A DNA stretch of 32,000 nucleotides from Ferroglobus placidus DSM 10642 (GTDB taxonomy: Archaea > Halobacteriota > Archaeoglobi > Archaeoglobales > Archaeoglobaceae): assembly GCF_000025505.1 (NCBI RefSeq), contig NC_013849.1, positions 390,001 to 422,000 on the forward strand, written 5' to 3'. Made by a program: the position numbers and the translations under genes. How positions within the stretch are numbered: position 1 is the stretch's first letter; every line of letters starts with the position of its first letter. A model generated the notes under the pieces. That model made no database searches and was not told where the DNA came from. It saw only the letters and a list, made by a program, of their open reading frames with translations. Shown here piece by piece: positions 101-21,768 of this stretch.

Positions 101-337
101 TCAGCCATACAGCATCCCCACATTCTTTATCCTCCGTTTTGGTTTCTTACCCTCCCACCTCTCGCACGAGTGGTTTGCTGGAGTGATCATTCCTCTGAGG
201 CCGCAGTAGCCATCACTCTCATCAACCGAATGCCAGCACCTGCAGCCAATACATCTCCCCCTGGGCAAGTTTCTCCACTTACTCCTGCCTTTTTTCTTAA
301 CCTTCTTACCTGTTCTTTTCTTTCTCTCTCCGGCCAT
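101..337 (-). CDS. small basic Cys-rich protein, possibly metal-binding, function unknown
   Basis: 78-aa ORF with K/R-rich termini and five Cys (CIGCRC...C...C). Co-oriented downstream of the ATPase gene. Confidence 0.55.
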   Translation of the reverse strand: MAGERKKRTGKKVKKKGRSKWRNLPRGRCIGCRCWHSVDESDGYCGLRGMITPANHSCERWEGKKPKRRIKNVGMLYG

Positions 338-338
338 G

Positions 339-368
339 CCCTTCTCTACCCTTCTCTACCCTTCTATC
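339..368. repeat. 10-bp tandem repeat x3 (cccttctcta; GGGTAGAGAA on the sense strand of the minus-strand gene)
   Basis: Read directly: 339-348 and 349-358 are identical and 359-368 is degenerate. The repeat abuts the start codon at 337. Confidence 0.8.
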
Positions 369-502
369 CCTTTGCCCCTACCTCAACCCATCTGTAGCGA
401 TGGTTGCAACAGCAACAGTAACGTTAAAGACCCAGGACGCGACCACACCCACACCTCTCATCCTCTCCTATTTACTTTCCAATCTACACTCTTTCCCATA
501 CT

Positions 503-2317
503 CTACACACCTCTCCCTGAAGCCTCAAGATAGGCCTTCTCCACAGGATTAGCTATAACGTTCATGTGGTAAATGCCGGCTGGAGTGATGAGCAGAGCAG
601 AGGAGTAGCCCGCAGTTTTTCCCTGTGCAGCTTCCTTCACAAACCCCTCCCCAGATGCCGGGATGTCCAGTATCCTCTTAACCTCTTCCGGTATCGCCTC
701 CAGCCTGAAGATGACGTGTATGTCTGCATTGGAGATTATCGTCCTCCCCTCCTCAAATCTGATGAACTCGTCATATCCCTGTGTGACGAGAGTGTAGCCT
801 GTTTTGTGGTGCCTTGAGTGCCTCACCTCTCTCTCAAGAAACTTTCTGATCTGCCTGTAGGCCATGAAGTAGTGGGCCTCATCCACCACCACCATCTTCT
901 TACCCTTCTCAGCCCTCTCTCTCGATCCAATCCACGTCAAAACTGCATGCAGAGGTAGAGGGCTCTTCTCAACACCCTCCACTGCTGAGAAGTCGAAGTA
1001 AACAACCCTGTTTCTGATATTGACATCCGTTCGCCCGTTGAACATGCTTAATTCAGCTGTAAAGGCGCTCATTGCGGACTTTATTCTCTCAGCAGCCCTC
1101 CTTTCTTCCTCACCCACGGGAACCTGGTCGATCTTCTCGATGACGTCGTCTATAATCACATCCCTGAACTTCTTATCCACGTAGGCCTTGATTATTGCCT
1201 TCCTCAGCACTCCAGATTCGGCCTTGTCCAGCGGGCTACCAACTTCTTCCTCAAAGAATGTTGAGAAGAACTCAAGGAGAGACATCAGCTTGTCCTTCAG
1301 CACCGACTGAGGTGTCTCGCCTTCCGGGACGAAGATGTCGAGGGGGTTCATGACGTTCTTGCCAACCACAACCCTCTGGGCCCCGAGCACGGCAGCGAGA
1401 TCCTTGAAGCCTGCAAGCGGATCGACAAGGAAGATCCTTACCTCAGGATCATTCAGCACCCACCTCGCAACCTCAAGCTTTGCGAAGAAGGATTTTCCAC
1501 TCCCTATTTTTCCGACAACGATCTCGTTGTGTCCTGCAAATTTGAACCTGTCAACTATGATCGGTGACTTTGTTGCAACATCATAGCCGTACAGCACTCC
1601 ACTCTCGTGCATGAGGGTGGGGAAGACGAAGGGGAAGCAGGACGCAGCGGCCTCGCTGTCCACCAGCACCTTCCTGCTGAGATAATCCTTTCCCTCAGGT
1701 AAAAGTGTTTTGAAGGCTTCGAGCATCCTGTACCTTATTCTCTTCAGCTGACACCCCTTTGCCTTCATCCTCTTGTTGAAGTCTGCAAAGTAATCCTCAG
1801 CAGCATTCTTGTCATCAGCAAGGATGTAGAAGTAAGTGCTTAAGGTGTAAAGCTTTGTCTGCCTTGACACAAGCCTTTCCCTGTAGCTGTATAGGTATTC
1901 AAGCTCGTGCTCCAGAGATGTCGTGTCAGTTCTACCCTTCTCCCTCATCTCCTGCAGCTTTGCCTCCAGCTGGGTTATGCGCCTGTTAAGCTCGTTCACA
2001 ATCCTCGTTTCATCCATGGGTTCTACAAACTGGACAAAGTCAAGCAGGTACGGCTTCCAGACAAACTCATCAGCAATCCACCCCTCGTAAACCTTTGCCG
2101 GGTAGGCGGTGACCTGGGCCGGGATCACAACCTTTCCGTTCAGGGTTAAATATCCCTTCTCTACGGCAACAAGCTCAGGGGCTATTATAGAGCGGTCCAC
2201 CTCCTCCTTGTGGCCTGACCGAGTGAGGATTTTTGCGGGCAGACCGGCCTGCTTCTCCCCCTTGCCCTTGTCCTTGCCTTTGCCCTTATCCTTGCCTTTC
2301 TTCTTGCCTTTGAACAT
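503..2317 (-). CDS. VirB4/TrbE-type conjugative (T4SS) ATPase
   Basis: Walker A GKIGSGKS, Walker B MVVVDEAHYF, and an upstream TAYPAKVYEGWI motif typical of VirB4/CD1110-type ATPases. ATG 2317 has a GGTGA SD 4 nt upstream; the track ORF starts at TTG 2338. Confidence 0.88.
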   Translation of the reverse strand: MFKGKKKGKDKGKGKDKGKGEKQAGLPAKILTRSGHKEEVDRSIIAPELVAVEKGYLTLNGKVVIPAQVTAYPAKVYEGWIADEFVWKPYLLDFVQFVEPMDETRIVNELNRRITQLEAKLQEMREKGRTDTTSLEHELEYLYSYRERLVSRQTKLYTLSTYFYILADDKNAAEDYFADFNKRMKAKGCQLKRIRYRMLEAFKTLLPEGKDYLSRKVLVDSEAAASCFPFVFPTLMHESGVLYGYDVATKSPIIVDRFKFAGHNEIVVGKIGSGKSFFAKLEVARWVLNDPEVRIFLVDPLAGFKDLAAVLGAQRVVVGKNVMNPLDIFVPEGETPQSVLKDKLMSLLEFFSTFFEEEVGSPLDKAESGVLRKAIIKAYVDKKFRDVIIDDVIEKIDQVPVGEEERRAAERIKSAMSAFTAELSMFNGRTDVNIRNRVVYFDFSAVEGVEKSPLPLHAVLTWIGSRERAEKGKKMVVVDEAHYFMAYRQIRKFLEREVRHSRHHKTGYTLVTQGYDEFIRFEEGRTIISNADIHVIFRLEAIPEEVKRILDIPASGEGFVKEAAQGKTAGYSSALLITPAGIYHMNVIANPVEKAYLEASGRGV

Positions 2318-2421
2318 ACACTCACCCCGACTAACCAAGCATCAACATATGTAGTATTCGGAGAATAAATAAGTTATTTTTTACTCCACTACAACCAGTA
2401 CTATAGCCTCCACAAAAAAGA

Positions 2422-3306
2422 TTAAAAACCTCTGCCGATAACCTCAAGTTCCTGCTCAATCTTGTTTTTTACTTCAGATCTCAGCGAGAAGTATTCAGGC
2501 TTGATAATCCTCATCTTCTCTCCTCTCTTCCCTCCTCCAGAGATCGTGGCATCGAAAAGCACGTGAGTGAAAACTTTGGCAAGCATGTAGGCCTTCACCT
2601 TGTTCATCTTCACTTCCAGCTTCTCTGCAGTACTAAGGATGTCCTCAGCTGTGGCCACAGTGGGCAGTTCATCGAAAATTCTTCTCGCAGTCTCGTAAGG
2701 TAGCTTCAGCACATGTCCCTTGTATCTGGCCTCAACAAGATCTTTGCTGACACGGTATATGAGATTGCCTTTCTTTATCCACCCTTTCTCCCCTCTCTCT
2801 GTCTTCCTTTTCTTCTCTTTCTTCTCTTTCTTTCCTTCAGTCTCCCTTACGGTTTCTTCCTTCTCTTCCTCCTTCTTCTCTTCCCATTTCTTCTCCTCTT
2901 TCTTCCACTCTGCACCTTCTTTATCCCCCGCCTTTGCTTTCTCCTCTTTTTTCTCTTCCGCTGCAATCTCTTTCTCCTCTATTCCTTCTACCACAGGTGG
3001 TAGAAGTTCTCTTTCCTCCTTCCCCACCTCTTCTACCACTTCCTCGTCTGCCCCTTCAGCACTCTCAACGCCACCAACACTTTCCGCCTCTTTCTCTTCT
3101 AGCCTCTCTACAATCTCAGCTTTCGTGAACACCAGTGAGATTTCCACATCCCCATTTGATCTCCTGAGTATGACCTCATCAGCCAGTTGCGTCAGAACGT
3201 CAACCGCTCTCCCTACAAGAGCAGGATCGATCCTTCCCCTTACTACAACTTTCGCCGAACCCACCTTCACCTCCGACTGTGTTTCCTTTACTCTCTTCCC
3301 AGCCAT
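2422..3306 (-). CDS. hypothetical protein with a central E/K-rich low-complexity segment
   Basis: Long ORF between the two VirB4-related genes. ATG 3306 is 12 nt inside the track start (GTG 3318). Globular N- and C-terminal parts flank a ~100-aa EK-rich linker. Confidence 0.7.
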   Translation of the reverse strand: MAGKRVKETQSEVKVGSAKVVVRGRIDPALVGRAVDVLTQLADEVILRRSNGDVEISLVFTKAEIVERLEEKEAESVGGVESAEGADEEVVEEVGKEERELLPPVVEGIEEKEIAAEEKKEEKAKAGDKEGAEWKKEEKKWEEKKEEEKEETVRETEGKKEKKEKKRKTERGEKGWIKKGNLIYRVSKDLVEARYKGHVLKLPYETARRIFDELPTVATAEDILSTAEKLEVKMNKVKAYMLAKVFTHVLFDATISGGGKRGEKMRIIKPEYFSLRSEVKNKIEQELEVIGRGF

Positions 3307-3390
3307 TCTCTCTACCACCTCTTCTACCTCTTTCTCTCCTTCTCTCGCTCACACACTCTCCCTTCACCTTTTGCCCTTCACACCACCTAC

Positions 3391-4239
3391 CTAACCACCC
3401 ACAACAACCTTCGCTGAGTTGTAGTTTTTGGGCATGGTTGTTCTGTTTGCAATCAGCTCGTAGAGGGCCAGAATGTCCTCTCTCTCAAGAAGCTTGGCAG
3501 GAATACCACCTCTCCTCAGGCCCGATGCAACAGTCTCAACCCTCCTCTTCAGCTCCCCTATCGCCACCTCCTCCGTTTTCTTCGGGACTGTTACAACCAC
3601 AAAGTACCTCCTCATGATCGCTGTCCTCACATCCTCATCAAGCCCTGCAAGGTACGCATGCGCAAGCTCACTCAGAATGGGGTTTGCGGCAATATCCTCG
3701 TCCTTCAGCCTCAGCATGAGCCTGTTTAGATACCTTCCAGCATTAAATTCTGCAGCTATGCTCAGGATCTGAATTGGAAAGTCGAGGCTGTCAAGGGTTG
3801 ATTTGAAAGAGTCGAGGAAGGCTCTCTGATCTGCAGGTGTTGAGTAGAAGAAGTTTACCGGCTGAACCTCTATTATGGCTCCATACCCATCCTTCATCCT
3901 CATTACCCATCCATCAACGAAGTCTGTGGAGGGAAGGTATTTTGTTGTGTCGAGCTCGTGGGCGTACACAGCTTTCTTCCTTGCTGCAAACCTCGCCTCA
4001 TATAAAGGAAACATGTATCCCACCTCCTCGGGCATCATTGCCTTCATAAATACAAGGAAGGCGAACACTCCTGCCGCTACAGCTACCGACACCACCCCAA
4101 ACCCCCTGAGCAGTATCCACACTGACGAGGAGATCAGGAAGAGCGTCAGGATCTCCACGGGTGTGAACAGCCCGAACAGCTTTGACTCTGCCTGAACCAC
4201 TGACGGAAACTCAACCACTCTCAGCCCTGTTCCCTGCAT
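3391..4239 (-). CDS. membrane protein: VirB3/PrgI-like TM hairpin fused to a VirB4-N-terminal-like domain (tentative)
   Basis: ATG 4239 lies ~25 nt from a TATA-like box; the track ORF extends to TTG 4323. TM hairpin: SKLFGLFTPVEILTLFLISSSVWILL / VVSVAVAAGVFAFLVF. The soluble part (GYGAIIEVQPVNFFYSTPADQRAFLDSF..DFPIQILS; RRYFVVVTV) resembles the extreme N-terminus of Gram-positive-type VirB4. Confidence 0.7.
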   Translation of the reverse strand: MQGTGLRVVEFPSVVQAESKLFGLFTPVEILTLFLISSSVWILLRGFGVVSVAVAAGVFAFLVFMKAMMPEEVGYMFPLYEARFAARKKAVYAHELDTTKYLPSTDFVDGWVMRMKDGYGAIIEVQPVNFFYSTPADQRAFLDSFKSTLDSLDFPIQILSIAAEFNAGRYLNRLMLRLKDEDIAANPILSELAHAYLAGLDEDVRTAIMRRYFVVVTVPKKTEEVAIGELKRRVETVASGLRRGGIPAKLLEREDILALYELIANRTTMPKNYNSAKVVVGG

Positions 4240-4256
4240 ATTGTAAGTATGCACAA

Positions 4257-4270
4257 AAAATAATATATTC
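4257..4270. promoter_or_regulatory. near-palindromic TATA-like box shared by divergent genes (4239 minus, 4305 plus)
   Basis: aaaataatatattc sits in the 65-bp divergent intergenic region, at the spacing expected for archaeal TATA-to-start distances. Confidence 0.45.
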
Positions 4271-4304
4271 TTTACGCAAACTATTATTACTGGAGGTGTG
4301 TGCC

Positions 4305-4793
4305 TTGCAGAATCATGAACCAATGGGTGGGGGAAATGGTGGTAGAAAAAGTGACGACTGGCAGCAAAACCATCAGCTGACCGGGCAAGACGACTGGGGC
4401 GGTGATGGTGTTTACAGCGGCATAGATATCGCTAAAGACATCCAGAGGCTTGCTGTTGCAGTGGAGGACGGAGACAGCATAGAAATATGGAGGCTCCTCA
4501 GAAAGATTATACATGTGATGGAAGTGTGCAAACTCAAACCCGGGCCCGGAGAGGAGGAGTTGAAAGAGCTGATGCGGTGTCTTGAAAACCTCAGGGAAAT
4601 TGTTACGCCACGGGATTTTGCAATTCTCGGCAGCGCCATCTACCTGATCGAGCTTGTTCTCTGGCTTGTTCACGAGTGTCAGACTGAGAGCCGGATTGCA
4701 TCATGCTTTGTTGGGGAGCTTGCAGGAATACACAGAGAATACACTCAGCTGCTCACCGGGACGAAGATAAGTACAGAGAGTACAGAGAGGTAA
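4305..4793 (+). CDS. hypothetical protein (predicted helical)
   Basis: In-frame TTG 4305 lies 6 nt after a perfect GGAGGTG (4292-4298); ATG 4323 is an alternative start. The track start 4182 would overlap the divergent gene. First gene of the plus-strand pilin/oxidoreductase cluster. Confidence 0.6.
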   Translation: MQNHEPMGGGNGGRKSDDWQQNHQLTGQDDWGGDGVYSGIDIAKDIQRLAVAVEDGDSIEIWRLLRKIIHVMEVCKLKPGPGEEELKELMRCLENLREIVTPRDFAILGSAIYLIELVLWLVHECQTESRIASCFVGELAGIHREYTQLLTGTKISTESTER

Positions 4794-4879
4794 GAATTGT
4801 CTAATGATGTCTAAGGGTCAGCTACCTGTCGCTAAAGCATGTGGGGGCTTCCTTGCGGTTAGAGGTGTGGTGATAGAGT

Positions 4880-5302
4880 ATGGTGAACAAGATTATAGGT
4901 GAGCTGCTCCTCATAGCGCTGATGATTGCAGCTGCAGCTGCTCTGGCATTAGCAATCTCCCCTCCCTCGACAAAGCCCGCATACGAGATAAAGGTGGAGG
5001 ATGCCTATCCTCCAACATCATCGCAGGAGCTGTTTAACGTGATCATGGTGTCAGGGGAAATACGGTACAGCAACCTCAAGGTGAGGTTGATAAACGCAAC
5101 AACGGGCGATGTGGTTGATACAGCCACCTACAACGGAAATCTTGCGGGAGGTGTTATATCTGCGGAGATAAAAGATACCGACGGCTACTTCTCCACCGGG
5201 GACTTCCTGAGGTTTAAGGGCTCCATTTCGCCGGGGATTTACAGGGTGATCATCACAGATGACAGATACGTTGCTTTTGAGGGGTTGCTGAAGATACAGT
5301 AG
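4880..5302 (+). CDS. small exported/anchored protein with N-terminal hydrophobic helix, possible archaeal pilin-like protein
   Basis: The N-terminus MVNKIIGELLLIALMIAAAAALALA is followed by a beta-rich domain. A GGTGAT SD lies 5-6 nt upstream. The class-III signal is atypical, so the pilin call is tentative. Confidence 0.6.
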   Translation: MVNKIIGELLLIALMIAAAAALALAISPPSTKPAYEIKVEDAYPPTSSQELFNVIMVSGEIRYSNLKVRLINATTGDVVDTATYNGNLAGGVISAEIKDTDGYFSTGDFLRFKGSISPGIYRVIITDDRYVAFEGLLKIQ

Positions 5303-5400
5303 GTTGGATCCTTGGAAGAGAATGGCTGCTGAAGATACCTGAGAAAGCTGGATGGGATGAGGTGAGTTTGGAGTGAAAGAAAAAGAGAAAGAAATAGGAG

Positions 5401-5808
5401 GTGAGGCCTATCAGATCTAAAGCCACGCTTGTGTTTGTATTTGCAATCCTTCTGAGTGCTGGGCTGGCCTTCTACATCTACACGCTGAACGCCGACGTCA
5501 TCAACAAGATTAAACCGCATCCACACCAGAACACATCCGTGTACTTCTTCTACTCCCACTACTGCCCCCACTGCAGAGAGGTGATGCCATACGTTGAGGA
5601 CGTTGCGAAAAAGGTTGAAAAAAATGGTGTGAGTGTAACCTTCTGCAGTGTGGACGAAACCATGCCACAGAGCTGTAAGAGGGTTGCCAAAGATATTCAT
5701 CTGTCTGCTGTGCCCACAGCTGTTGTTTACAGTAATGGGAGTAAAACGCTGCTTGTTGGGAGTGATGAAGTCAGAACGCTCGGGAAGGTGCTTGGAGTCG
5801 AACAATGA
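5401..5808 (+). CDS. membrane-anchored thioredoxin-fold thiol:disulfide oxidoreductase (CPHC, DsbA-like active site)
   Basis: N-terminal TM anchor (ATLVFVFAILLSAGLAFYIY), then YFFYSHYCPHCREV and a downstream VPT cis-Pro-type motif. The GTG start is embedded in GGAGGTGA, so the start is uncertain. Confidence 0.75.
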   Translation: MRPIRSKATLVFVFAILLSAGLAFYIYTLNADVINKIKPHPHQNTSVYFFYSHYCPHCREVMPYVEDVAKKVEKNGVSVTFCSVDETMPQSCKRVAKDIHLSAVPTAVVYSNGSKTLLVGSDEVRTLGKVLGVEQ

Positions 5809-5837
5809 ATTGAAATAAAAAACAACTCGGTTTAAGA

Positions 5838-5978
5838 TCAAAAAATCAAGATCTCTCCCTCCTCAGGATCCTCAGACGGTTCCAGAAATTCTACTTCAAG
5901 CACGAATTCCCCATTCAGTCCGCTCTCTTCACTTCCGCTGCCAACCACTTCCTCTACAAGCTCAAGCACCTCTATCAT
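5838..5978 (-). CDS. possible 46-aa acidic small protein
   Basis: ORF below the track cutoff: MIEVLELVEEVVGSGSEESGLNGEFVLEVEFLEPSEDPEEGEILIF. A TATA-like cttatatat lies ~25 nt upstream (leaderless geometry) and a T6 run follows the stop. Confidence 0.3.
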   Translation of the reverse strand: MIEVLELVEEVVGSGSEESGLNGEFVLEVEFLEPSEDPEEGEILIF

Positions 5979-6158
5979 ACTATATACTACACACACAGAT
6001 ATATAAGCATCATTAGTGTTCTGAAAGTGGAAAGAAGAAAAAACGAATGTAAATCTTTTTCTCTGTTAGAAAAGCGATAATGGCCGACTAAAGGAGGAAT
6101 AATAACTGGAAAATTGACTAGATACACAATAGTCATTTCTCAACCCCTCTCACTAGCC

Positions 6159-6892
6159 TCATAGCAGATCCCATAACAGCGAGCTCAGGAAAACCAGCAG
6201 ATCCCCGAAAAAGATGGCGAGAACAAATCCTGCTGTTATGAACACAAGAAATGGTATCTGCGGAGTTACCCACACCCTCTGACATCCTGCCTTTCTGAGC
6301 GCTTCAAGCTGAGCAGGATCTGGGTCTATCCCTCTTCTGAGATTCACAACCTCTCCACCCCTCACCACCTGGAGAAGGTAGTGAAATCTGGGGAAGTTTG
6401 AAACTTCCACACGATAACCCATCAGAAATCCAACAGGATGCTCCTTAAAGGCTGAAAATCCCTCTTTTAAGTTTCTGAGGACAAATACAATCATTATAAA
6501 CGGTGTTGCGATGAGGGAGTTCGTGAGGACTGTGAGGGTAAAAATTCCGAATCCTTTATTGAGAATGGGTAGCGGTGGTGCTGGTGGTGTCAGTTCAGGA
6601 TAGAAGGGGAAGGTTAATGCGAGGACCATAACTGCCTTTGCATCAGCGCCCCCCACGCACCGATACGGTAGAAAAGGTAGGCCAGAAAGACCATATAAGC
6701 GGATCCAGCAGCACCGAAAATTAGCTGATTTGTATTTGCCTCCGCTATTGTGAGGGGGGAGAGGGTGATAAGCATCCACTTCCAGACTCTGTTCGGAACC
6801 CTTCTCTCCTTCAGATCAAGAAAGGAGGAATAGACGAGGAAGGTGGTTGCAATTGAGAGTTTAAGCAGATAGACAAGGGTCAGGGGCTGCAT
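6159..6892 (-). pseudogene. archaeal prepilin/preflagellin peptidase (A24 family, FlaK/PibD-like) interrupted by a frameshift
   Basis: The first catalytic Asp motif FLDLKERRVPN is in track ORF 6614..6901. The second, GGADAK, is in the overlapping frame of ORF 6159..6779. The frames join at a C6 run (6649-6654); one extra base would give ...FYRIGAWGGADAKAVMVLAL... Confidence 0.8.
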
Positions 6893-6919
6893 TAACACCA
6901 CTCCCTATCTTGGTGAACT

Positions 6920-6928
6920 AAAAAAAAA
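6920..6928 (-). terminator. T9 run on the minus strand after the pilin gene (possible archaeal terminator/attenuator)
   Basis: A9 on the plus strand at 6920-6928, between the pilin stop (6953) and the peptidase start (6892). Confidence 0.35.
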
Positions 6929-6952
6929 GAAGTTTGTTAAGGCCAAAAAATT

Positions 6953-7441
6953 TTAGCTTATCATGACGTTCTGGTCGACCATTGGCTGCATTGTGGGCTT
7001 GTAGTACAGCACGACCTCGTATGTTCCTGCAGAGGGATTGCTACCAAGTACAGTGTTCTTTGCAATTATCTCTTCACCGCCCTCGAAGAAGTTTTTGTTG
7101 TATCCGGTAGCAGAGAGCTGGTCTAGTGTGACGTTAACACCGTTGGCCGTGGCAACATCCTCGCTGTACAGCAGGGTGTGGTTACTGTCATACACTGTGA
7201 GAATTATGTCTGAGAACAAAATTCTGTCCCCACCGAGGTGCCTCACAACGAACGCATAGGTGTTCGCGCTAAGAGGATCTGGATAGTCTACGACTTTGAA
7301 CTGGGCGCTTGGTGGCTTGTTGAAGTTCATCAGACCTCCCATAAACGCCGCAACCACCGCCACTCCAACAACGGCCACTGCTATTAGCAGGGCCACCACT
7401 ACTATCTGGCTTATACCCCTCTCGTCCTTCACAAACCCCAC
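6953..7441 (-). CDS. archaeal type IV pilin-like protein (class III signal peptide, DUF1628-type)
   Basis: N-terminus MGFVKDERGISQIVVVALLIAVAVVGVAVV, plus a VRHLGGD motif typical of this family. GTG start with GGAGGTG 5 nt upstream. Confidence 0.85.
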   Translation of the reverse strand: MGFVKDERGISQIVVVALLIAVAVVGVAVVAAFMGGLMNFNKPPSAQFKVVDYPDPLSANTYAFVVRHLGGDRILFSDIILTVYDSNHTLLYSEDVATANGVNVTLDQLSATGYNKNFFEGGEEIIAKNTVLGSNPSAGTYEVVLYYKPTMQPMVDQNVMIS

Positions 7442-7484
7442 TTTTTCACCTCCGCTCTCGTCTCCTCTTTCTAAAGAGTATCCT

Positions 7485-7498
7485 AAAAGTATATATAG
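7485..7498. promoter_or_regulatory. palindromic TATA box in a divergent promoter (pilin minus strand / VirB2-like plus strand)
   Basis: aaaagtatatatag is centred ~31 nt upstream of ATG 7523 and ~51 nt from GTG 7441. Confidence 0.5.
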
Positions 7499-7522
7499 TT
7501 TACTACTCCAATTTATGATAGT

Positions 7523-7825
7523 ATGCGTGTGAAAGCAGTGGTGGTGGGAACACTACTTGCCATGGCCCTTATCCAGCCGGCCCTTGCCCAGACAATGACT
7601 GTATCGTATCTGGCCAGCGCCCTCAGGGCTGTGGGCTCAGCTCTCTTCGGACTCGCTCTGCTCTGGGGTGCTGCAAAGATCATGGCGTCAGGAGGGGACC
7701 AGAGGATGCTGGAGGAGGGTAAAAACGTGATTAAAAATGCGATAATCGGTTACATCCTGATCATACTCGCTTCCTTCATAGCGGTTGGATCCCTCAACCT
7801 GGATCCGCTTGTGATAATCCCCTAG
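7523..7825 (+). CDS. VirB2/TrbC-like T4SS pilin (copy 1)
   Basis: Signal peptide ending ALA-Q, then two hydrophobic helices separated by a short charged loop (LLWGAAKIMASGGDQRMLEEGKNVIKNAIIGYILIILA). This is the topology and loop signature of T4SS pilins. Confidence 0.7.
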   Translation: MRVKAVVVGTLLAMALIQPALAQTMTVSYLASALRAVGSALFGLALLWGAAKIMASGGDQRMLEEGKNVIKNAIIGYILIILASFIAVGSLNLDPLVIIP

Positions 7826-7946
7826 GAGGTGGGGTATGGATGCTGTGGAGTGTGGATGCTGAATGGATCAGAGGGATGGATGGTGTTGCAAGGGCTGATG
7901 GTGTGGTGGATGAAGTGAAGGGATTGAAAAATGCTGGGGTGGAAAA

Positions 7947-8981
7947 ATGAAGGAGAGAGTGGAGTCGGAAAAGGAGCAGGTTGAGATAGATGTTGGCGAG
8001 GGAGTAAAGTGGTATCCGCCGGAACTTATACCAAAGACTGTACAAATTAAGCGCACAGTCTCAATCCCAACCGCCGTTCTCGCTGCTGCCGGGGTTGACC
8101 TGTCAAAAGACATTTACGGCAGATGGGTTGTTGACAGGGACGACTACCTGCTGGAGATATCATATAAAGAGGGAGAGGGGTTCAGCAGGCTCATCAGACC
8201 CAGCCTCACATCATGCAGGCTCACATACGTTCCAAATGCGGTGAGAAATAGAGTGGAAAATTTCAGCAGGTTCTTCTGGACCGCTGAGGGTAAAAACGTA
8301 CTCAGATTCGTCCCGGCCAAAAACAGGATAAAAATCAAGAGATTTCTGGGATATTGTGTGGTGGACGAGGACAGGCTGCTTTTACCGCGCATATTTTCAG
8401 CAAGCCACTGCATACTCGGGTTTGCAGATGGGTTCGACTTCATCATTGCCATTCCTGACGACAGTCATGGTGTTAGTGTCAGCGTGGCAGGGAGTGCTGT
8501 TGTCGGTGTCGGCGTGGTAGGGAAGTCGAGCATAGCAGAAGAACCAAAACAGAGGGAAGGAGAGGAGGTGGAGGAGGAAAAAGAGGGGAGAGAGAAAGAG
8601 GAAGAGGAGCAGAAGTGTGATGAAGTGGTGGTCGGTGTAAAAGAGAATGAGGCGAGGGAAGGGGCAGAGACAGATTTCCTTGAGGTGGATCTGAAACCTT
8701 TGCCAGCGCCAGTGAGGGCGCAGCTGGCCCGGCAGTTCCGGCTACCGGACAGGTGGCTGTGCTGGGAGGGGTTTGCTGAGATCATGTCATCCAGAGGACC
8801 CATCGAAAGAAAATGCATTGTTCTCTCTCCCGTAGTTCTGGAAAAGGCGCTGGAAGAGATGCAGTTGCAGGAAGAAAGGCAGGAAAGTGTGCAGAGAGAG
8901 GAACAGGAAGTGATGGAAGGAGAGGAAGAGGCTAGGGGAGAGCAGGTACAGGAAGAGGTGCAGGAGGCTGTGTTACCATGA
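7947..8981 (+). CDS. hypothetical protein; possible AbrB/SpoVT-like N-terminal segment, two acidic low-complexity regions
   Basis: 344-aa ORF with a GGTG SD 6 nt upstream. RTVSIPTAVLAAAGVDL resembles a swapped-hairpin DNA-binding motif (weak). Confidence 0.65.
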   Translation: MKERVESEKEQVEIDVGEGVKWYPPELIPKTVQIKRTVSIPTAVLAAAGVDLSKDIYGRWVVDRDDYLLEISYKEGEGFSRLIRPSLTSCRLTYVPNAVRNRVENFSRFFWTAEGKNVLRFVPAKNRIKIKRFLGYCVVDEDRLLLPRIFSASHCILGFADGFDFIIAIPDDSHGVSVSVAGSAVVGVGVVGKSSIAEEPKQREGEEVEEEKEGREKEEEEQKCDEVVVGVKENEAREGAETDFLEVDLKPLPAPVRAQLARQFRLPDRWLCWEGFAEIMSSRGPIERKCIVLSPVVLEKALEEMQLQEERQESVQREEQEVMEGEEEARGEQVQEEVQEAVLP

Positions 8982-9187
8982 TCCTCCCGGCCGCACTGTT
9001 CGTCTCGCTCCGGGAGAGCATCAGAGACATTGGGAGTCGGAGAAAGATGGATTCCGCCCCGGAAGATGAAGAGGAAGGGAATGGAGTGGAAGGGATGCCA
9101 GAGGAACAGAGAGAGGTTTTCAGGCTGATCTACGCTCTCAGCCTTCTATTTGCAGAGAGAGATGAAGAGATCGAGAAAATTCTGTGA
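8978..9187 (+). CDS. hypothetical small acidic protein
   Basis: 69-aa ORF whose start overlaps the upstream stop (ATGA coupling). Confidence 0.5.
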   Translation: MILPAALFVSLRESIRDIGSRRKMDSAPEDEEEGNGVEGMPEEQREVFRLIYALSLLFAERDEEIEKIL

Positions 9188-9193
9188 GGGGAG

Positions 9194-9547
9194 ATGCAGG
9201 GTGTGGTAAATTCTTTTCTCGGGAAAACCACAACGCTTCCTGTAGCCGTCACTGTCAGGTTCAGAAATGAAAGGAAAAAGATCTACGTGAGCTTCGGGGA
9301 GCTGAGAATCCCGAAACATGCTAAAATTGATGAAGCTGAAATGGAGAAGCTCGGAGAAAAATACTCCTGCAGGATTGCCGAAACTGGAAATATGTGGGTT
9401 GTAGTGCCGCAGGGAGTGCTAAAAATAATAAGAGAGGAGGGGGTGCTGTGTTCCGAAATTGATGAGCACACGAAAATCCTGAGGGGCTGGTTTGAAAAAC
9501 ATGGTGTGAAGCTGATAAAAGAGTTTTTTGAACGCGGGTGGTTCTGA
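9194..9547 (+). CDS. hypothetical protein
   Basis: 117-aa ORF, 6 nt after the previous stop, with a purine-rich SD-like sequence upstream. Confidence 0.6.
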   Translation: MQGVVNSFLGKTTTLPVAVTVRFRNERKKIYVSFGELRIPKHAKIDEAEMEKLGEKYSCRIAETGNMWVVVPQGVLKIIREEGVLCSEIDEHTKILRGWFEKHGVKLIKEFFERGWF

Positions 9548-9579
9548 TTGCTTGTTGTTGGGGTTCAAGGGGTGAGTTG

Positions 9580-9945
9580 ATGGGTCTTCTGGATAAACTT
9601 TTCGGAAGAGAACAAGATGAGGAGGATGCTGGGCCCTTTGATGTGGAAAGCTTTTCGGAGCTTAACAGATATCTGAAGGATAACAGATGCGTGGTCGTGG
9701 AGTTCTGGATGAGAGGTTGTTCTCCTTGCAAAGCAATGGATGCAATTGTGAAGAGGCTTGCTAAAGAATACAGGGGAAAGGTGATGTTTCTTAAATCACA
9801 CTTCCGCACAGAAATTGCGGATAAATACAAGGTGAAGAGTGTACCAACATTTCTGCTGTTTGTAGATGGGAAAGTGAGAAAGAAGAAGAGGGGAGCGATG
9901 AGCTATGAGGCTTTCAAGAACTGGATGTCTGGGTGCGTTCGCTGA
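9580..9945 (+). CDS. thioredoxin-like protein (CSPC active site)
   Basis: VVEFWMRGCSPCKAM ... KVKSVPTFLLFVDGK is the classic thioredoxin fold signature. ATG 9580 has a GGTGA SD 4 nt upstream; the track start is 9538. Confidence 0.8.
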   Translation: MGLLDKLFGREQDEEDAGPFDVESFSELNRYLKDNRCVVVEFWMRGCSPCKAMDAIVKRLAKEYRGKVMFLKSHFRTEIADKYKVKSVPTFLLFVDGKVRKKKRGAMSYEAFKNWMSGCVR

Positions 9946-9977
9946 ATTTTCAATTGTGAATGCTTAGGGTGTGTTGA

Positions 9978-10673
9978 ATGGTTGCTTTTTTGAGGAGAGA
10001 GGTTGCAAGGAGGGTTTTTGCCAGGGAACTCATGGACTCATCCTACACAATCAGGGATGAGTTCGAGAAGAGTCCGGTTTATGTTCTAACACCCCTTGGA
10101 TTAAAATGCAACAGGGTTTTTATTATCGGAGTTCTCGCGGAAAAGGAGGAGGTTGGGGAAGAAGGGAATGTTTACAGGGTCAGGATACTTGACCAGACCG
10201 GCTCCTTTGTTGGTTATGTTGGAAGATTTCAGCCTGAGGCCTATGAGGCTCTTGAAGAGATAGATATACTGACTCTTGTTGCAACAACAGCAAAGGTGAG
10301 GGTTTTTGAGGGCGAAACGAGGAAATTTGTTTTTATCCGCCCCGAGACAATAAGCCCTGCCGACCCTGAATCGAGGGACTACTGGGTTGTTGAAACGGCA
10401 GTCCATACACTTGAAAGGATAAGGGAGATGAAGAGAGGAGAGAGTGAGAATGCCAGGCTTGCAAAGGAAATATACAATACAAATCTTGAAGAGTATAAGA
10501 GTATGGTTAAAGAGGCGGTGATGAGGCTGATGGAGGATTATGCGGAAGTTGAGGAAGATAAAGAGGAGGGAGAAGAGGAGATAACTCTTGAAGAGATAGT
10601 GAAAAAACTTAATAGCTTTTTAGACGTTGAGGAGGAGGAAGAAATAGACTTGATGAAGCTTCTGGAAGAGTAG
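9978..10673 (+). CDS. RPA32/COG3390-like OB-fold ssDNA-binding protein with acidic C-terminal tail
   Basis: The pattern ARRVFARELMDS..PVYVLTPLGLKCNRVFIIGVLAEKE..YRVRILDQTGSF matches my memory of archaeal RPA32-type OB-fold proteins. The acidic tail is typical of SSBs. Confidence 0.55.
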   Translation: MVAFLRREVARRVFARELMDSSYTIRDEFEKSPVYVLTPLGLKCNRVFIIGVLAEKEEVGEEGNVYRVRILDQTGSFVGYVGRFQPEAYEALEEIDILTLVATTAKVRVFEGETRKFVFIRPETISPADPESRDYWVVETAVHTLERIREMKRGESENARLAKEIYNTNLEEYKSMVKEAVMRLMEDYAEVEEDKEEGEEEITLEEIVKKLNSFLDVEEEEEIDLMKLLEE

Positions 10674-10697
10674 TTGCGTCCATCAGGAGGACCTGGT

Positions 10698-11021
10698 ATG
10701 AGGGAGGAAAGTAGAGATGCAATGCGGGTGTATCTTAATAAAATTGGAGAGTTTGAGCTTTCGGATAGTTTGGCATTCAGCGTCTCATATGACGAACAGG
10801 GTTTGTGGTGTGTGGAAAACGATGAAGTAGAAATATATGGGTACGGTTCAACTTTTCATGAGGCTGTAAAAGATTTGGAGGAGAGTTTGAGGTCATTGTT
10901 AATTGGATTTCTTGCTTTCCCAGATGAAAAGCTCAATGAGCGATCGAAGGAAATAAAATTAGCCCTATCCAAATACATAAACATAGATAAATATAAAAAA
11001 GTGTATGATCCCTTAAGGTGA
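10698..11021 (+). CDS. HicB/UPF0150-like small protein (tentative)
   Basis: FSVSYDEQGLWCVENDEVEIYGYGSTFHEAVKDLEESL resembles the HicB-type antitoxin fold. ATG 10698 follows GGAGG; no HicA partner was seen. Confidence 0.4.
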   Translation: MREESRDAMRVYLNKIGEFELSDSLAFSVSYDEQGLWCVENDEVEIYGYGSTFHEAVKDLEESLRSLLIGFLAFPDEKLNERSKEIKLALSKYINIDKYKKVYDPLR

Positions 11022-12215
11022 GTTCCCCTTGCCTACAATTACCCTCCCATCAGGCAGTGTTGCCACATACACCCATCCAGCTTCGAGGTATGAGTCGATT
11101 TCTTCAGGCCTTACAGCCTTCTGCTTCGGTTCAACACCTTCATCTCCTCCTTCAGCTGTTCTTGTCTGCAGGAAGAACATTGCTGCCCTCTCGTACTTCA
11201 GCCTCATATCCTCAACAAGTGATTCAGGCAGCCTGTTCTTGTTTGTTGTATACTGATGCTCTATATCCCCCTTGTGCCCCATCCAGAAGACCCTGTAGTC
11301 TTCAGGAATTATTCCTGCTGCCTCCGCCATAAGCATGTAGGTGTCGAAGTAGTGCCTCAGCACATAGGGGCGCCAGTCAAAGCCGGCAATTCTTATAGCC
11401 TTTCTTACAGCATTGGAAATGCTTGCAGTTCTAAGAAAGCTGGTGCCAGCCCTCCCGGAAATCAGAGGTGAGGAGGGTGTGAGCTTCTCCCCCTTCCTTA
11501 GCCGCATGCTGAGGTAATCCTGCAAGTATTCACATCCCTCCTCACACAGAAATGTGAAGTACTGGTGCCCCGCCTTACTGAGGGATGATCTGACAACAAC
11601 CATCGCAGGAGTGTTGATAAACTCCACTCTATCCCCTATCCTCAGCTCCGGAACATCTCCAATCCTCAATCCATCCTCACCCCTGTAATCTCCAAGAACG
11701 CCAAGGCGCACTCCTGCAAAGGCTATGAGGGCTATCGCCGCCCTAACCCTCAAATCGGCTTTCCACAGCACTTTCCTCAGCTCTTTTTTTGATGGTACCC
11801 TCTCAGTCTCAGAAACCCTTGTCCTGTGGACATCCTTAATCCTGATGTGGACGTTGAAGGGGCGGTTGTGAAATCTGAACCAGCTCTTCAGCACCTTCAC
11901 AAAGGATATGGCATAGCTTCCAGACTTATCCTCAAGGGATGTGATGTAGTCCATCAAAACGTCTCTGAGCCTGCTGTCCTCCATATCCAGCAGCATTTCC
12001 GGATCTATGTCTGTGTCCCTGCAGAACTTTGCGAGCCTTTTCAGGTAGAGGTCTGCGGTTGCAGGAGATCCCCTTGCCAGATTCCTGTACCATCTCAGCA
12101 CGCTGCTGATTTTCAGCAGGTCTCTGTAGCTTGTTATAGCTGGCGGGTTTTGATCCTGCTGCCGCCACTGCCACGGCGGGTTTTGATCCTGGCCCTGATC
12201 CTGGTCCGGATCCAT
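11013..12215 (-). CDS. tyrosine recombinase / integrase
   Basis: C-terminal catalytic signatures: AFAGVRLG, HVLRHYFDTYM, WMGHKGDIEHQYT. ATG 12215 has an AGGTGGTG SD and lies 17 nt after the SF2 helicase stop. The Q/D-rich N-terminal tail is unusual. Confidence 0.85.
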   Translation of the reverse strand: MDPDQDQGQDQNPPWQWRQQDQNPPAITSYRDLLKISSVLRWYRNLARGSPATADLYLKRLAKFCRDTDIDPEMLLDMEDSRLRDVLMDYITSLEDKSGSYAISFVKVLKSWFRFHNRPFNVHIRIKDVHRTRVSETERVPSKKELRKVLWKADLRVRAAIALIAFAGVRLGVLGDYRGEDGLRIGDVPELRIGDRVEFINTPAMVVVRSSLSKAGHQYFTFLCEEGCEYLQDYLSMRLRKGEKLTPSSPLISGRAGTSFLRTASISNAVRKAIRIAGFDWRPYVLRHYFDTYMLMAEAAGIIPEDYRVFWMGHKGDIEHQYTTNKNRLPESLVEDMRLKYERAAMFFLQTRTAEGGDEGVEPKQKAVRPEEIDSYLEAGWVYVATLPDGRVIVGKGNSP

Positions 12216-12232
12216 AACACCCACCACCTGCT

Positions 12233-13747
12233 CTACCTCACAACCTCAATCCTGAACCCGCGCTCTGTAATGGCGTAAAGCCTCTTCTGGTACTTCTCAA
12301 ACTCCTCTTCAGTCATCAGAATTATGTGCTCTGGCTCCTGCTTTTGAGAGTGCATGAGTCTTCCGAAACGCTGGCTCTCCTGCATTCTGCTGCCTCCAAG
12401 AAATGCAATCTCCACCACTCTCTCCACATCTCCTATGCTGATACCTTCATCACCAACCCTTGAAACCACACAAACCTCAGAATCTCTTATGATATCCATC
12501 CTGTTCTTTGTCTCGCCATAAACGAATGGAACGCCGAACTCCCTTGCAATCCTCTTGCCGAAATCGATGCTGTCGCAGAAGATGATCGTTTTTGCAGGAA
12601 TTTCCAACAGATCCCTGAGCTTCCTCAGCTTCTCTCTCTCACTGTCTACAATGTACAGCTTGAACACCGGTTCTTTAACAACTCCTTTCTCCAGCAACTC
12701 ATCCCACGATAAGCCGACTGGAAAGCCTGTAAGGGCGAAAATGTAGTTCTCCCTTTTGTCTTCTCTGAAAGGGCTTCCGCTAAGCCCGATTCTGTATTTC
12801 GTTTTAATCGTTGCAAGCCTTATGAAGGTGTTGGCTGGGAGATGGTGCACTTCATCAAAAATTGTCAGCGTAAACTCCTTTTTTGCAACTTTGTGGTATG
12901 AGTGGTAGGTTATGACCTCTATTTCGCTGGCATACTCAGGGATGTACTTCCTTATCCTCTCTTCCCACTGCTCTACAAGTGTTCTTGTTGGCACTACAAC
13001 AAGCTTTTTGCCCTTAATCCTCGCAAGAGCATAAACACCGAACAGGGACTTGCCCGCTCCGAATGGCCAAAATATTCCCACAGCCCCCTTATCCAGGAAC
13101 TCTTCCCAGGCCTTTTCCTGATATGATCTCAGCTTGATTTCATCCCACTCCCTTAAATCCTCATCACTGACCGGCTGCGGGATAAACGGAAGGATGCCGT
13201 CCTCGATCAGCTTTGCTATCAGCTCGAATTCGTATCCTTTCTTTATCTTTATCCTGTCCTCGCCCTCTCTCCTCAGCAGATACTTCCTGTATTTCCTCCA
13301 CGCCTCATCCTGATGCTCCCTGCCCGTCCACAGAACACCGTCGATAACCTTGTAAGGCTTAACTTCCGGAAACTTCAGCCTCTTTTTGATGTTTTCAGGG
13401 AGTGGGTAGAGCCACTGGGTGTATCGGTTAATTACAAAGATTCTGTAGGCTTTTGTTTCTCTCTCAAGCCAGCCGATGTTGAATCGGATAAATTTTGGAA
13501 CAATGACATAGTACTCATCCTTTCGCTTTGGCAGGATTAGATACGGTTCCTCCAGGAACTCCTCAATCAAACTACCAACATCATCCTCAAGGTTTAGAAT
13601 CTGGAGCTGGCTGAGTTTCTCCTCAAGTTCCCTCTCAAACCGCCTTTTCTCCTCCTGCAGCAGGGCCACAAGTTCATCCAGTCTTGAAATCCCCTTCTCA
13701 ACATCCTCCACAACCCTTCTGATTTCACCGTCAGCGAGCACCTTCAT
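12233..13747 (-). CDS. SF2 DEAD/DEAH-box helicase (XPB/Rad25/COG1061-like) with unknown ~230-aa N-terminal domain
   Basis: Walker A FGAGKS, DEVH box (IFDEVHH), and later motifs SGSPFRED and QESQRFGRLMH. ATG 13747 has a GGTGA SD; the track start is 13834. Confidence 0.85.
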   Translation of the reverse strand: MKVLADGEIRRVVEDVEKGISRLDELVALLQEEKRRFERELEEKLSQLQILNLEDDVGSLIEEFLEEPYLILPKRKDEYYVIVPKFIRFNIGWLERETKAYRIFVINRYTQWLYPLPENIKKRLKFPEVKPYKVIDGVLWTGREHQDEAWRKYRKYLLRREGEDRIKIKKGYEFELIAKLIEDGILPFIPQPVSDEDLREWDEIKLRSYQEKAWEEFLDKGAVGIFWPFGAGKSLFGVYALARIKGKKLVVVPTRTLVEQWEERIRKYIPEYASEIEVITYHSYHKVAKKEFTLTIFDEVHHLPANTFIRLATIKTKYRIGLSGSPFREDKRENYIFALTGFPVGLSWDELLEKGVVKEPVFKLYIVDSEREKLRKLRDLLEIPAKTIIFCDSIDFGKRIAREFGVPFVYGETKNRMDIIRDSEVCVVSRVGDEGISIGDVERVVEIAFLGGSRMQESQRFGRLMHSQKQEPEHIILMTEEEFEKYQKRLYAITERGFRIEVVR

Positions 13748-13914
13748 ACTCTCACCTTTTGGCCAAGGTCTGGAGCCGCAGTTTGGTCGCCGCAGTTTGT
13801 CGCTGCCACACACCCTCACCACTCTCTTCTCCACTCTCTTCTCACAACCCGCTCACGTCAGATCCTGTGCTGAGCTCACTGGAGAGCAGGTGCTATCGCA
13901 GCCTTCACCCACTC

Positions 13915-15744: not shown

Positions 15745-16014
15745 CTCTATCCCCCTTCTCAAGGAGACTTTCTGCGCCATCTTTTATAACCTTTTTGGTT
15801 CATTTGTCCTGCATTGAGTGAACATATCAGTTTACCATTAATCAAATAATGGAACCACTATTACAAAATACTGTAACGGATTTACCCTTATGTTTTGATG
15901 GCTGTTCTGTGGGGTTTTACTTTAATAAAGTATTCTGGAGGCTTAGAGGCGAATGTTTAATGCCGATCACTCTCCGGTCACTTTCATCTGGGCAGGAGCT
16001 GCTGTTACAGCTTG

Positions 16015-17811: not shown

Positions 17812-17943
17812 ATCTCACCACTCCGCTGGAGACCAACCAGCCTTCTTCTCCAACCTCCTCAAACCCGGCTTTATTTTACCATTTTACTCTATCGGGAAAG
17901 CGGAGGGAAAAAGTTTATGTCTGCGAGATGAAATGAAGAAGGT

Positions 17944-18255
17944 ATGGGGGATACAGCAATAGTGCTTGTAGGACTGCTTATCGGCCTTGTGCTGGGATTG
18001 AGCGGTGTGGCAACTCTCCTCAATCTTATGAGTGATGTCGTAAGCAATGCACAGACACAGCTCTCACAGCTCGGAGCTGCATCAACCATCATCCTTCTGG
18101 TCATGGCCCTGATACTGATAATAAAGGTCAGAGTTCTCTCCTCTTTAATCGTGGGAGCAATAGTAGGGGCTGTGGCAGAATTTATACTGGAGGCAAATGG
18201 CATCCACATTTTTGAGGCAATTAGATCGGCAGTTTTTGGGTTATTGGGATCCTAA
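17944..18255 (+). CDS. small integral membrane protein (about 3 TM helices)
   Basis: 103-aa hydrophobic ORF with a TATA-like aaaagtttatg ~30 nt upstream. Divergent from the helicase operon. Confidence 0.65.
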   Translation: MGDTAIVLVGLLIGLVLGLSGVATLLNLMSDVVSNAQTQLSQLGAASTIILLVMALILIIKVRVLSSLIVGAIVGAVAEFILEANGIHIFEAIRSAVFGLLGS

Positions 18256-19004: not shown

Positions 19005-19084
19005 TTTAACACCTCCACATCCTCTCTATATACCTCTTATCTCTTATCTCTTTTTTCTTCTTTAAAATAATAAATAAACCTTCC

Positions 19085-21576: not shown

Positions 21577-21685
21577 CTCAGCCACCTCCTAATCTGTTGT
21601 GCAGCATACCCTTAAAGTTATTCCCCGAGAATGAATGTGGGAGTTTCACAAACCTCATAAATCCGGTCCTTAAAGGGATTTTCAG

Positions 21686-21768
21686 GCGGGGGTTGCCGAG
21701 CGGACAAAGGCGCAGGATTGAGGGTCCTGTCCCGCAGGGGTTCGAGGGTTCGAATCCCTCCCCCCGCA
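21686..21768 (+). tRNA. tRNA-Leu: tRNA-Leu (anticodon GAG), no encoded CCA
   Basis: Hand-folded cloverleaf: acceptor GCGGGGG/CCCCCGC, anticodon stem CAGGA/TCCTG with loop TTGAGGG, 14-nt variable arm, T arm GAGGG-TTCGAAT-CCCTC, discriminator A. Confidence 0.92.

Follow-up and report, generated by a model that had tools for sequence, protein, structure and literature searches.

The closest described counterparts of the locus analysed here are thaumarchaeal integrative-conjugative elements (ICEs), in which VirB4, VirD4, VirB6 and VirB3 are reported together with TadC, FlaI/PilT, a prepilin peptidase and pilins (PMC6563490), and a VirB2-like pilus protein has been reported for a Nitrosocaldus ICE (PMC5797428). 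Here we examined a 32,000-nt stretch of the genome of Ferroglobus placidus DSM 10642 (the window, below), in which genes for a conjugation-type type IV secretion system (T4SS) are interleaved with genes of type IV pili (T4P). We judge that this region is probably a reduced, integrase-linked T4SS module with pilus-type accessories, and that it belongs to a family restricted to the Archaeoglobales. A preliminary description of the same DNA had proposed a hybrid of secretion system and pilus on a mobile element, and all of the genes that it listed are present at or near the positions where it placed them.

Coordinates are positions in the window, and negative numbers refer to sequence on its left; the gene tags of the region run from about Ferp_0454 to Ferp_0485. 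The left flank was read from a Logan contig (L016), which showed 0 mismatches to the window over a 7369-nt overlap and reaches 6 kb further left. L-numbers such as L005, L006 and L008 denote related loci compared with the window; these are mostly contigs of metagenome-assembled genomes (MAGs), such that counts of lineages are approximate. L030 is a contig from a related Ferroglobus population with 83–94% protein identity to the window.

The VirB4 halves, coupling protein and VirB2-type pilin

The ATPase previously called VirB4-type is encoded at 503–2317 on the minus strand (604 aa) and represents the C-terminal, motor part of VirB4 (VirB4C). Its best VirB4 model matches were the monoderm CD1110 and Mycoplasma ICE families: it matched the NCBIfam model conju_CD1110 with an E-value of 3.8e-55 (model positions 186–722 of 752), VirB4_plasma with 1.2e-46 (model positions 296–833) and TraC-F with 9.9e-30, and the Pfam families AAA_10 and P-loop_TraG were above cutoff. 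The NCBIfam VirB4-type scores were all under the equivalog cutoffs, which marks this protein as a divergent member, and its GSGKS and DEAH motifs were invariant in a 15-sequence alignment. A HerA/FtsK-type or CedB-type ATPase was considered and dropped, as the NCBIfam model DNA_import_CedB gave an E-value of 0.036 (12.7 bits, cutoff 700) compared to 3.8e-55 for CD1110. The preliminary description had named a grouping with HerA/FtsK as one result that would overturn its assignment; no such grouping occurred, and the VirB4 identity stands.

The gene at 3391–4239 (minus strand, 282 aa) encodes two hydrophobic helices, forming a VirB3-like transmembrane (TM) hairpin, followed by a VirB4 N-terminal domain (VirB3/B4N). 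The protein matched positions 20–283 of VirB4_plasma (5.4e-11), positions 13–168 of the CD1110 model and TraC_F_IV (1.2e-3), and carries a precomputed TraC-like match (PF26593). Because VirB4_plasma is covered from 20 to 283 by this protein and from 296 to 833 by the product of 503–2317, VirB4 in the window is encoded by two separate genes. The hairpin had been recognised earlier, correctly as regards its two TM helices; taken alone it was an incomplete account of a gene that also holds the VirB4 N-terminal domain. Between the two halves lies a gene for an EK-rich protein (2422–3306, minus strand, 294 aa) that had been counted among the T4SS parts. It had no match in Pfam, NCBIfam or PHROGs, and L005 was the sole related locus to hold a homologue (35% over 145 aa at the C-terminus); in loci other than the window and L005, the VirB4 halves abut or overlap. 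Nothing supports this open reading frame (ORF) as a T4SS part.

A VirD4-type coupling protein (T4CP) of 937 aa, seen through L016, lies at the left end of the window. Its gene (−2779 to 34, minus strand) enters the window with its 5' end only (1–34), and is followed in L016 by the host feoAB genes. The protein passed the Pfam cutoffs for TrwB_AAD_bind (26.7 versus 20.5 bits) and T4SS-DNA_transf (22.1 versus 20.1 bits), and was 77% identical to the T4CP of L014 and 61% identical to that of L008; no N-terminal TM segment was detected in its 937 aa. VirD4-type coupling proteins were found in nearly all related loci. The preliminary description had pointed to the left of the window for VirD4- and VirB6-like genes, and was right about VirD4; VirB6 was not found as far as −6 kb.

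VirB2a (Ferp_0459; 7523–7825, plus strand, 100 aa), a VirB2-type pilin as previously suggested, matched Pfam T4SS_pilin (PF18895) with an E-value of 4e-10 (40.1 bits, cutoff 26.6), and has a Sec signal ending ALA↓Q (arrows mark processing sites) followed by two hydrophobic helices. The AlphaFold2 (AF2) model was a helix-loop-helix hairpin with a predicted local distance difference test score (pLDDT) of 75. Foldseek gave no significant match for this model, with the A. pernix CedA1 conjugative pilus (8dfu) ranked 10th at an E-value of 3.3, and searches of solved structures with the single sequence and the family profile gave nothing meaningful. The VirB2 call therefore rests on the Pfam profile; for so short a protein, neither structure comparison nor PDB sequence searching was informative.

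Type IV pilins, prepilin peptidase and thioredoxin

PilinIII (6953–7441, minus strand, 162 aa) is the clear class-III-signal pilin that had been announced for this region: it matched Pfam Pilin_N with an E-value of 2e-10 (41.8 bits, cutoff 25.2) and has the class-III site ERG↓ISQIVVVALLIAVAVV (ERG↓ISQ). A ribosome-binding site, GGAGGTGA, lies just ahead of its GTG start. PilinIII and VirB2a formed a divergent pair in the window and in L030, L015/L024 and L020/L021. The 81-bp region between the two genes (7442–7522) contains a TATATATA element about 25–30 nt upstream of the VirB2a ATG, and the arrangement suggests that they share a control region in this gap.

The small protein C4 (Ferp_0454; 4880–5302, plus strand) was assigned to the type-IV-pilin family by profile-profile comparison and by its AF2 fold. 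Its direct Pfam match was weak (Pilin_N, 0.019). Comparison of the C4 family profile with the PilinIII family by hhalign gave a probability of 95.5% (E-value 1.6e-8, 132 columns), and all 10 of the small remote matches scanned, from a search of 1.84 billion representatives, matched Pilin_N, 9 of them above the Pfam cut-off. The AF2 model (pLDDT 90) consisted of an N-terminal helix and a beta-sandwich. A VirB8-like reading of C4 was dropped on the strength of this fold and the Pilin_N profile match.

The C4 alignment contained two forms, one with a long basic leader ending KG↓FVEIIGELL and one starting with M↓VNKIIGELL. The window C4 is of the leaderless form; its start coincides with the mature +1 position of the leader-bearing homologues, and it has no class-III leader. 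The earlier suggestion of a second pilin-like protein at this position thus holds for the family, and not for a leader peptide. C4 adjoins VirB3/B4N in the window, L005, L006, L008, L009, L010, L012, L014 and L015/L024, and was the divergent neighbour of VirB3/VirB4 in every locus with that side visible; in L030, C4 was seen beside the thioredoxin described below. By reading of their sequences, C4, PilinIII and VirB2a have zero cysteines.

The FlaK/PibD-type prepilin peptidase A24 (6159–6901, minus strand) is split into two overlapping ORFs, with Peptidase_A24 on 6614–6901 and Arc_PepC_II on 6159–6779. The reading frame is broken by the loss of 1 nt from the G-run at 6649–6654 (six G, G6), right before the catalytic GGADAK motif; with one G added, the gene gave a full-length protein that could be aligned from one end to the other with the intact L014 enzyme (248 aa). 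The orthologue in L030, in the same gene order, has G7 and encodes an intact 255-aa A24, from which the window differs by a single G gap. Intact A24 was also present in L022 and in L014, where it follows the T4CP. The G6 run was found in three other assemblies of F. placidus reads (L001, L002, L016), and sequencing error was judged an unlikely cause, since four assemblies agree, though all may come from the same strain. From these comparisons, the frameshift is either recent and specific to this strain, or marks a phase-variable site. The dedicated peptidase of the preliminary description is accordingly a gene with both catalytic motifs present, which is frameshifted in this strain.

The membrane-anchored CPHC oxidoreductase reported earlier was confirmed. 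This thioredoxin-fold protein (Trx; 5401–5808, plus strand) has an N-terminal TM anchor helix and matched Pfam Thioredoxin (2e-10) and TraF (25.1 bits, cutoff 23), with TrbB at 2.7e-4. Trx homologues recurred in other loci: next to C4 (L015/L024, 41% identity), next to VirB2a (L020) and, in L022, with the pilin on one side and A24 on the other.

Related loci, possible mobility and other genes of the window

The T4SS family appears from its sampled members to be narrow and Archaeoglobales-restricted. VirB4C had about 15 close homologues, and the nine VirB4C loci from the genome collection belonged to Archaeoglobales/Archaeoglobi MAGs or to unclassified 'uncultured archaeon' MAGs. The C4 family comprised 21 clusters in a 5.8-billion-sequence collection, with about 12 strong matches among the 1.84 billion representatives. 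Multiple divergent copies of the system occur per genome, and one MAG carried three.

Three types of locus were distinguished (slashes separate gene groups). Type I (L008, L009, L010, L012) begins with a 142–227-aa protein and VirB2b (a second VirB2-type pilin) / class-III immunoglobulin-like (Ig) proteins, and continues with leader-bearing C4 / VirB3/B4N, VirB4C, T4CP and a 347-aa protein. Type II (L015/L024) begins with VirB4C and VirB3/B4N / C4 and Trx, followed further on by a DUF8186-like protein and a 625-aa protein with 7–8 TM segments, and continues / VirB2b, an Ig protein, a hydrolase and VirB2a / PilinIII, T2SSE, a 374-aa protein and T2SSF; in L024, the T4SS and T4P genes form one continuous run of ~15 kb. 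Type III, in which C4 is leaderless, comprises the window, L030 and L014, plus L020 and L005. L014 and L020 are parts of one contig, on which VirB2a / PilinIII, and further on T2SSE, T2SSF and DUF8186, lie about 17 kb from the VirB4 genes. An operon in L022 consists of PilinIII, Trx, A24, T2SSE, a 371-aa protein, T2SSF, DUF8186 and a TrbC-type pilin. The T2SSE/T2SSF operons of L020, L022 and L024, complete pilus-assembly sets from three other lineages, each start with a PilinIII homologue; T2SSE denotes the PilB/FlaI-type assembly ATPase and T2SSF the TadC/PilC-type platform.

Across lineages, the linkages that recurred were those of C4 with VirB3/VirB4 and of VirB2a with PilinIII, together with the membrane Trx and the peptidase (four lineages). 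Because this linkage recurs in related loci, the pairing of T4SS and T4P genes is a property of the family, beyond what chance would give. We regard it as very improbable that an ordinary T4P fragment merely happens to lie beside an unrelated T4SS. The 17-kb separation of pilus operon and VirB4 in L020/L014, the location of the L022 VirB4 gene on the contig of the pilus operon but beyond the 20 kb that were read, and the occurrence of several T4P loci per archaeal genome (PMC4858521) would fit such an accident; it is countered by the adjacency of C4 to VirB3/VirB4 in every informative locus, by VirB2-type pilin genes that flank the pilus operons themselves, and by the C4 and PilinIII families, which are tiny and were found only with this T4SS family. 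The hybrid system of the preliminary description is borne out as a mixture conserved across the Archaeoglobales, and falls short in the window copy, which is without VirB6, assembly ATPase and platform.

In a bolder reading, C4 would be a structural subunit of the secretion machine and the VirB2-type pilins would be assembled with the PilB/TadC-type motor, giving a chimeric DNA-transfer filament. We give this possibility little credence. If true, two pilin classes thought to serve separate machines would build one organelle, and leaderless pilins would bypass the prepilin peptidase.

To the right of the pilin genes lies a tyrosine recombinase (integrase; 11013–12227, minus strand), which matched phrog_1 (1.2e-13) and Pfam Phage_integrase at 24 bits, under the 27.1 cutoff. 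It was 65% identical to the integrase adjoining the T4SS in L014. PHROGs and Pfam scans placed three helicase genes directly upstream of it (12233–17811, minus strand): a 533-aa DNA helicase and two paralogous superfamily 1 (SF1) AAA_11/AAA_12 helicases (13915–15780 and 16015–17811), whose genes share DNA patches of 75–88% identity. In L014, a 58%-identical SF1 helicase occurs beside the integrase, a pAgo gene and the matching T4SS subtype. The helicases might process DNA for the transfer system, or might make up a defence island. Because an integrase is present in the window, and the same integrase and SF1 helicase lie beside this T4SS subtype in L014, a mobile-element setting for the cluster is plausible. 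Between the pilin genes and the integrase, a 231-aa protein (9978–10673) is weakly like Pyrococcus RPA32 (PDB 8aas_B, E-value 0.005, residues 7–177), and may be an element-encoded OB-fold single-stranded-DNA-binding protein.

In the module that we propose, whose VirB4 is related to that of conjugation systems in monoderm bacteria and archaea, DNA translocation would rest on a core of split VirB3/VirB4, VirD4-type T4CP and VirB2-type pilins, to which the fullest locus adds a polytopic VirB6-like protein. C4, PilinIII, the class-III Ig proteins, A24 and Trx would be its pilus-type companions, joined in fuller versions by a PilB-type ATPase and a TadC-type platform. Judging from what VirB4, VirD4 and VirB2 are known to do, and from the examples of R64 and of Ups with Ced, DNA would be moved from cell to cell by the VirB4/VirD4 ATPases together with the VirB2-type pilins, and the class-III-signal proteins would mediate cell-cell attachment or stabilise mating pairs, like the R64 thin pilus in IncI conjugation or Ups pili with Ced. 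The extracytoplasmic Trx might aid the folding of exported parts. The position of the F. placidus copy between host feoAB and the integrase/helicase block would be consistent with an integrated, potentially mobile element.

Several observations weigh against this interpretation. Tblastn with the relatives' VirB6-like, T2SSE, T2SSF and DUF8186 proteins revealed no homologue or remnant from −6 kb to +32 kb. The VirB6-like call is itself based on a precomputed TrbL_3 match of the 625-aa-type polytopic protein in L015; proteins of this kind were found only in the L015/L024 locus type, and a Pfam scan of the L024 counterpart, which has the same length and position and 7–8 hydrophobic segments, did not reproduce the match. 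The A24 gene is frameshifted in the type strain. No relaxase family was detected among the ORFs scanned at 101–13834 and 28493–31511, nor in L008; archaeal conjugative plasmids are generally without recognisable relaxases (PMC9905601). Searches for att direct repeats within the window, and of the left flank (L016) versus the rest, yielded only 13–15-nt chance matches; no direct repeat of ≥16 nt joined the left flank to the right side, and no tRNA-Leu repeat was found. Finally, L008 and L012 have common housekeeping flanks with no integrase within 10 kb, a pattern as compatible with a chromosomal system as with an ICE. The mobile element that had been proposed is thus backed by an integrase linkage shared with L014, and its status as an ICE is unproven because att sites were not found.

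Without VirB6 and a pilus motor, and with a frameshifted peptidase, the F. placidus copy would need host or paralogous machinery, or would be only partly functional. It could also be a remnant in decay, carried as cargo without function after an originally complete T4SS/T4P supercluster lost its channel and pilus motor; the frameshift, the presence in relatives of VirB6, T2SSE, T2SSF and DUF8186 that were not found here, and the unrelated EK-rich gene between the VirB4 halves would fit this reading. However, the related Ferroglobus population (L030) has retained this reduced arrangement of genes, there with an intact peptidase, the VirB4C, VirB3/B4N, T4CP, pilin and Trx ORFs of the window are full length with conserved motifs, and the frameshift is a single homopolymer base that is strain-specific. 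The conserved order and the full-length ORFs argue against simple decay, which we hold to be quite unlikely.

Another reading is that a host-owned, domesticated DNA-exchange system of the Archaeoglobales is encoded here, analogous to Ced/Ted with Ups-type pili, and that it is chromosomal and serves to import or exchange cellular DNA, with no mobile element being moved. The alike downstream housekeeping genes of L008 and L012 speak for this, as do the position of L006 amid metabolic genes, the resemblance of the Sec-signal VirB2-type pilins to TedC (PMC9905601), the outcome of the relaxase and att searches, and the recurrence of radical-SAM/SPL-like genes nearby. We consider it unlikely nonetheless: VirD4-type coupling proteins, present in nearly all loci, are not among the described Ced and Ted components, the CedB model was essentially no match, the window subtype travels with integrase and helicase in two genomes, and genomes hold several divergent copies, including a second cluster at 28.5–32 kb of the window. 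We therefore favour the integrase-linked module of mobile-element origin, because of its coupling protein, its integrase linkage and its multiple copies per genome.

This second, paralogous cluster starts at 28493 and extends to the end of the window (32000). It consists of a 227-aa protein (28493–29176, minus strand), a 31-aa ORF, VirB2b (29288–29677, minus strand), a class-III-signal Ig-domain protein (29859–31511, plus strand) and then another Ig protein, with a Sec signal, whose gene continues past the window end. VirB2b matched T4SS_pilin (PF18895, 1.3e-9) and TrbC (PF04956, 4.9e-7); the 550-aa Ig-domain protein matched Big_7 (5.9e-31) and has the class-III leader DRG↓FAEVI. The gene order was the same as in L008 and L009. 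A 714-aa ORF with long Gly/Glu/Arg-rich low-complexity stretches (26352–28496) adjoins the 227-aa partner of VirB2b.

VirB2a in the first cluster is followed by a 36-aa ORF and a 344-aa protein (7840–8981, plus strand). The latter was 39% identical over 158 aa to the 225-aa product of the gene following VirB2a in L020, with the same order in L030; it had no family in Pfam or PHROGs and no detectable kinship to the 227-aa protein following VirB2b. Between VirB4C and the coupling protein lies a gene for a basic, Cys-rich protein of 78 aa (101–337, minus strand), called in three assemblies, which had no family match in Pfam, NCBIfam or PHROGs and was absent at the matching position in L014. A cytoplasmic protein of 162 aa between VirB3/B4N and C4 (4305–4793, plus strand), called in L016, was weakly matched by a protein in the corresponding place in L014 (27% identity, E-value 1e-9) and had no family in Pfam or PHROGs.

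Further right, two lipoprotein-signal genes were noted at 18579–19888, one of which (19085–19888) encodes a secreted staphylococcal-nuclease fold with an Excalibur motif and the other a Cys-rich protein of 141 aa. Within 20761–21768, a DUF5131/radical-SAM gene abuts tRNA-Leu(GAG) at 21686–21768; radical-SAM or SPL-like genes near T4SS/pilus modules were also seen in L006 (14288–15085) and L020 (10622–11581). In the segments 23376–24666 and 25703–26149, two tandem paralogous ORFs have a common 95-nt stretch that is 97% identical, and a separate 81-nt direct repeat (89% identical, 366 nt apart) lies in apparently non-coding DNA.

Comparison with known transfer systems

The construction of mating contacts in archaea is little understood, and the family described here supplies a compact and comparatively rich parts list from relatives of a hyperthermophile that can be cultivated. 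Among its entries are a coupling protein, two VirB2-type pilins, the pilin always found beside VirB3/VirB4, adhesin-like class-III proteins, a peptidase and Trx. These are concrete candidates with which to ask whether type IV pilins serve as adhesins in mating or form part of the T4SS in archaea.

Conjugative systems of the mating-pair formation class MPF-FATA, which covers Firmicutes, Actinobacteria, Tenericutes and plasmids of archaea (among them haloarchaeal megaplasmids and Thermococcus pT33-3), likewise have the coupling protein next to VirB4. The nearest plasmid relatives of the window ATPase were on haloarchaeal megaplasmids (28–31% identity), with separate genes for VirB3, VirB4N and VirB4C. 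In contrast to the locus described here, Gram-positive systems have been described without VirB2-type pilins (PMC12102498), and no class-III pilins have been described for them; in the one haloarchaeal locus examined, the 10 kb upstream of VirB4 held no evident pilin gene. On the Haladaptatus pallidirubidus plasmid NZ_CP085303.1 (L019), positions 2730–18218 encode VirB3-like (129 aa), VirB4N-like (349 aa) and VirB4 (739 aa) proteins separately; a gene of 1398 aa lies downstream, and the locus further holds a polytopic membrane protein (496 aa) and an AAA ATPase with a TM anchor. Nearly all of these are annotated as hypothetical.

Among bacteria, the IncI plasmid R64 also co-encodes a conjugative T4SS with a type IVb thin pilus that stabilises mating pairs, as cited in PMC12102498. 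R64 belongs to a diderm bacterium and has no sequence relationship to the present locus, and it carries a complete pilus set, whereas the window has only pilins and a broken peptidase. The F-type proteins TraF/TrbB resemble Trx in being thioredoxin-fold accessories in a conjugation cluster, as reflected in the Pfam TraF score above cutoff and the TrbB match; Trx, however, scored far under the NCBIfam equivalog cutoffs, and is membrane-anchored in an archaeon without a periplasm.

Ced of the Sulfolobales/Desulfurococcales and Ted of the Thermoproteales share with this family a VirB4-family ATPase and a Sec-processed two-helix VirB2-type pilin (TedC) (PMC9905601), and Ups together with Ced has already established the idea of a T4SS-derived machine that cooperates with type IV pili. 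Compared to Ced/Ted, the present system is linked to a T4CP and an integrase, and its ATPase fits bacterial CD1110/TraC-type VirB4 far better than CedB (3.8e-55 versus 0.036). There was no CedA/TedA-like channel in the window, and the pilin genes are inside the cluster instead of in a separate Ups locus.

The thaumarchaeal ICEs, represented by Nitrosocaldus ICE-1/ICE-2, come closest in content, with VirB4 and VirD4 ATPases, VirB3-like parts, an integrase, no recognisable relaxase and, in one element, a VirB2-like pilus protein; their VirB6-like protein has its counterpart in the fuller Archaeoglobales relatives. They belong to another phylum, with no close sequence relationship shown, and the window copy, unlike them, is without VirB6, TadC and a pilus ATPase (from −6 kb to +32 kb), and no att sites were found. 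Among the ORFs scanned in the region discussed here, which is only a part of the window and of the element, none matched TFIIB or ParB. The preliminary description had known of no archaeal transfer apparatus with exactly this make-up; the combination nonetheless has a precedent in the thaumarchaeal ICEs, which are reported to combine T4SS and T4P parts (PMC6563490). We found no literature description of a T4SS from Ferroglobus or the Archaeoglobales, where the occurrence of this combination is apparently undescribed, and the family thus extends it to another archaeal lineage. What is particular to the Archaeoglobales family, compared to the thaumarchaeal ICEs, is a pilin, with leaderless variants, fixed as the invariant neighbour of a split VirB3/VirB4, and two VirB2 paralogues, with VirB2-type genes flanking pilus-assembly operons.

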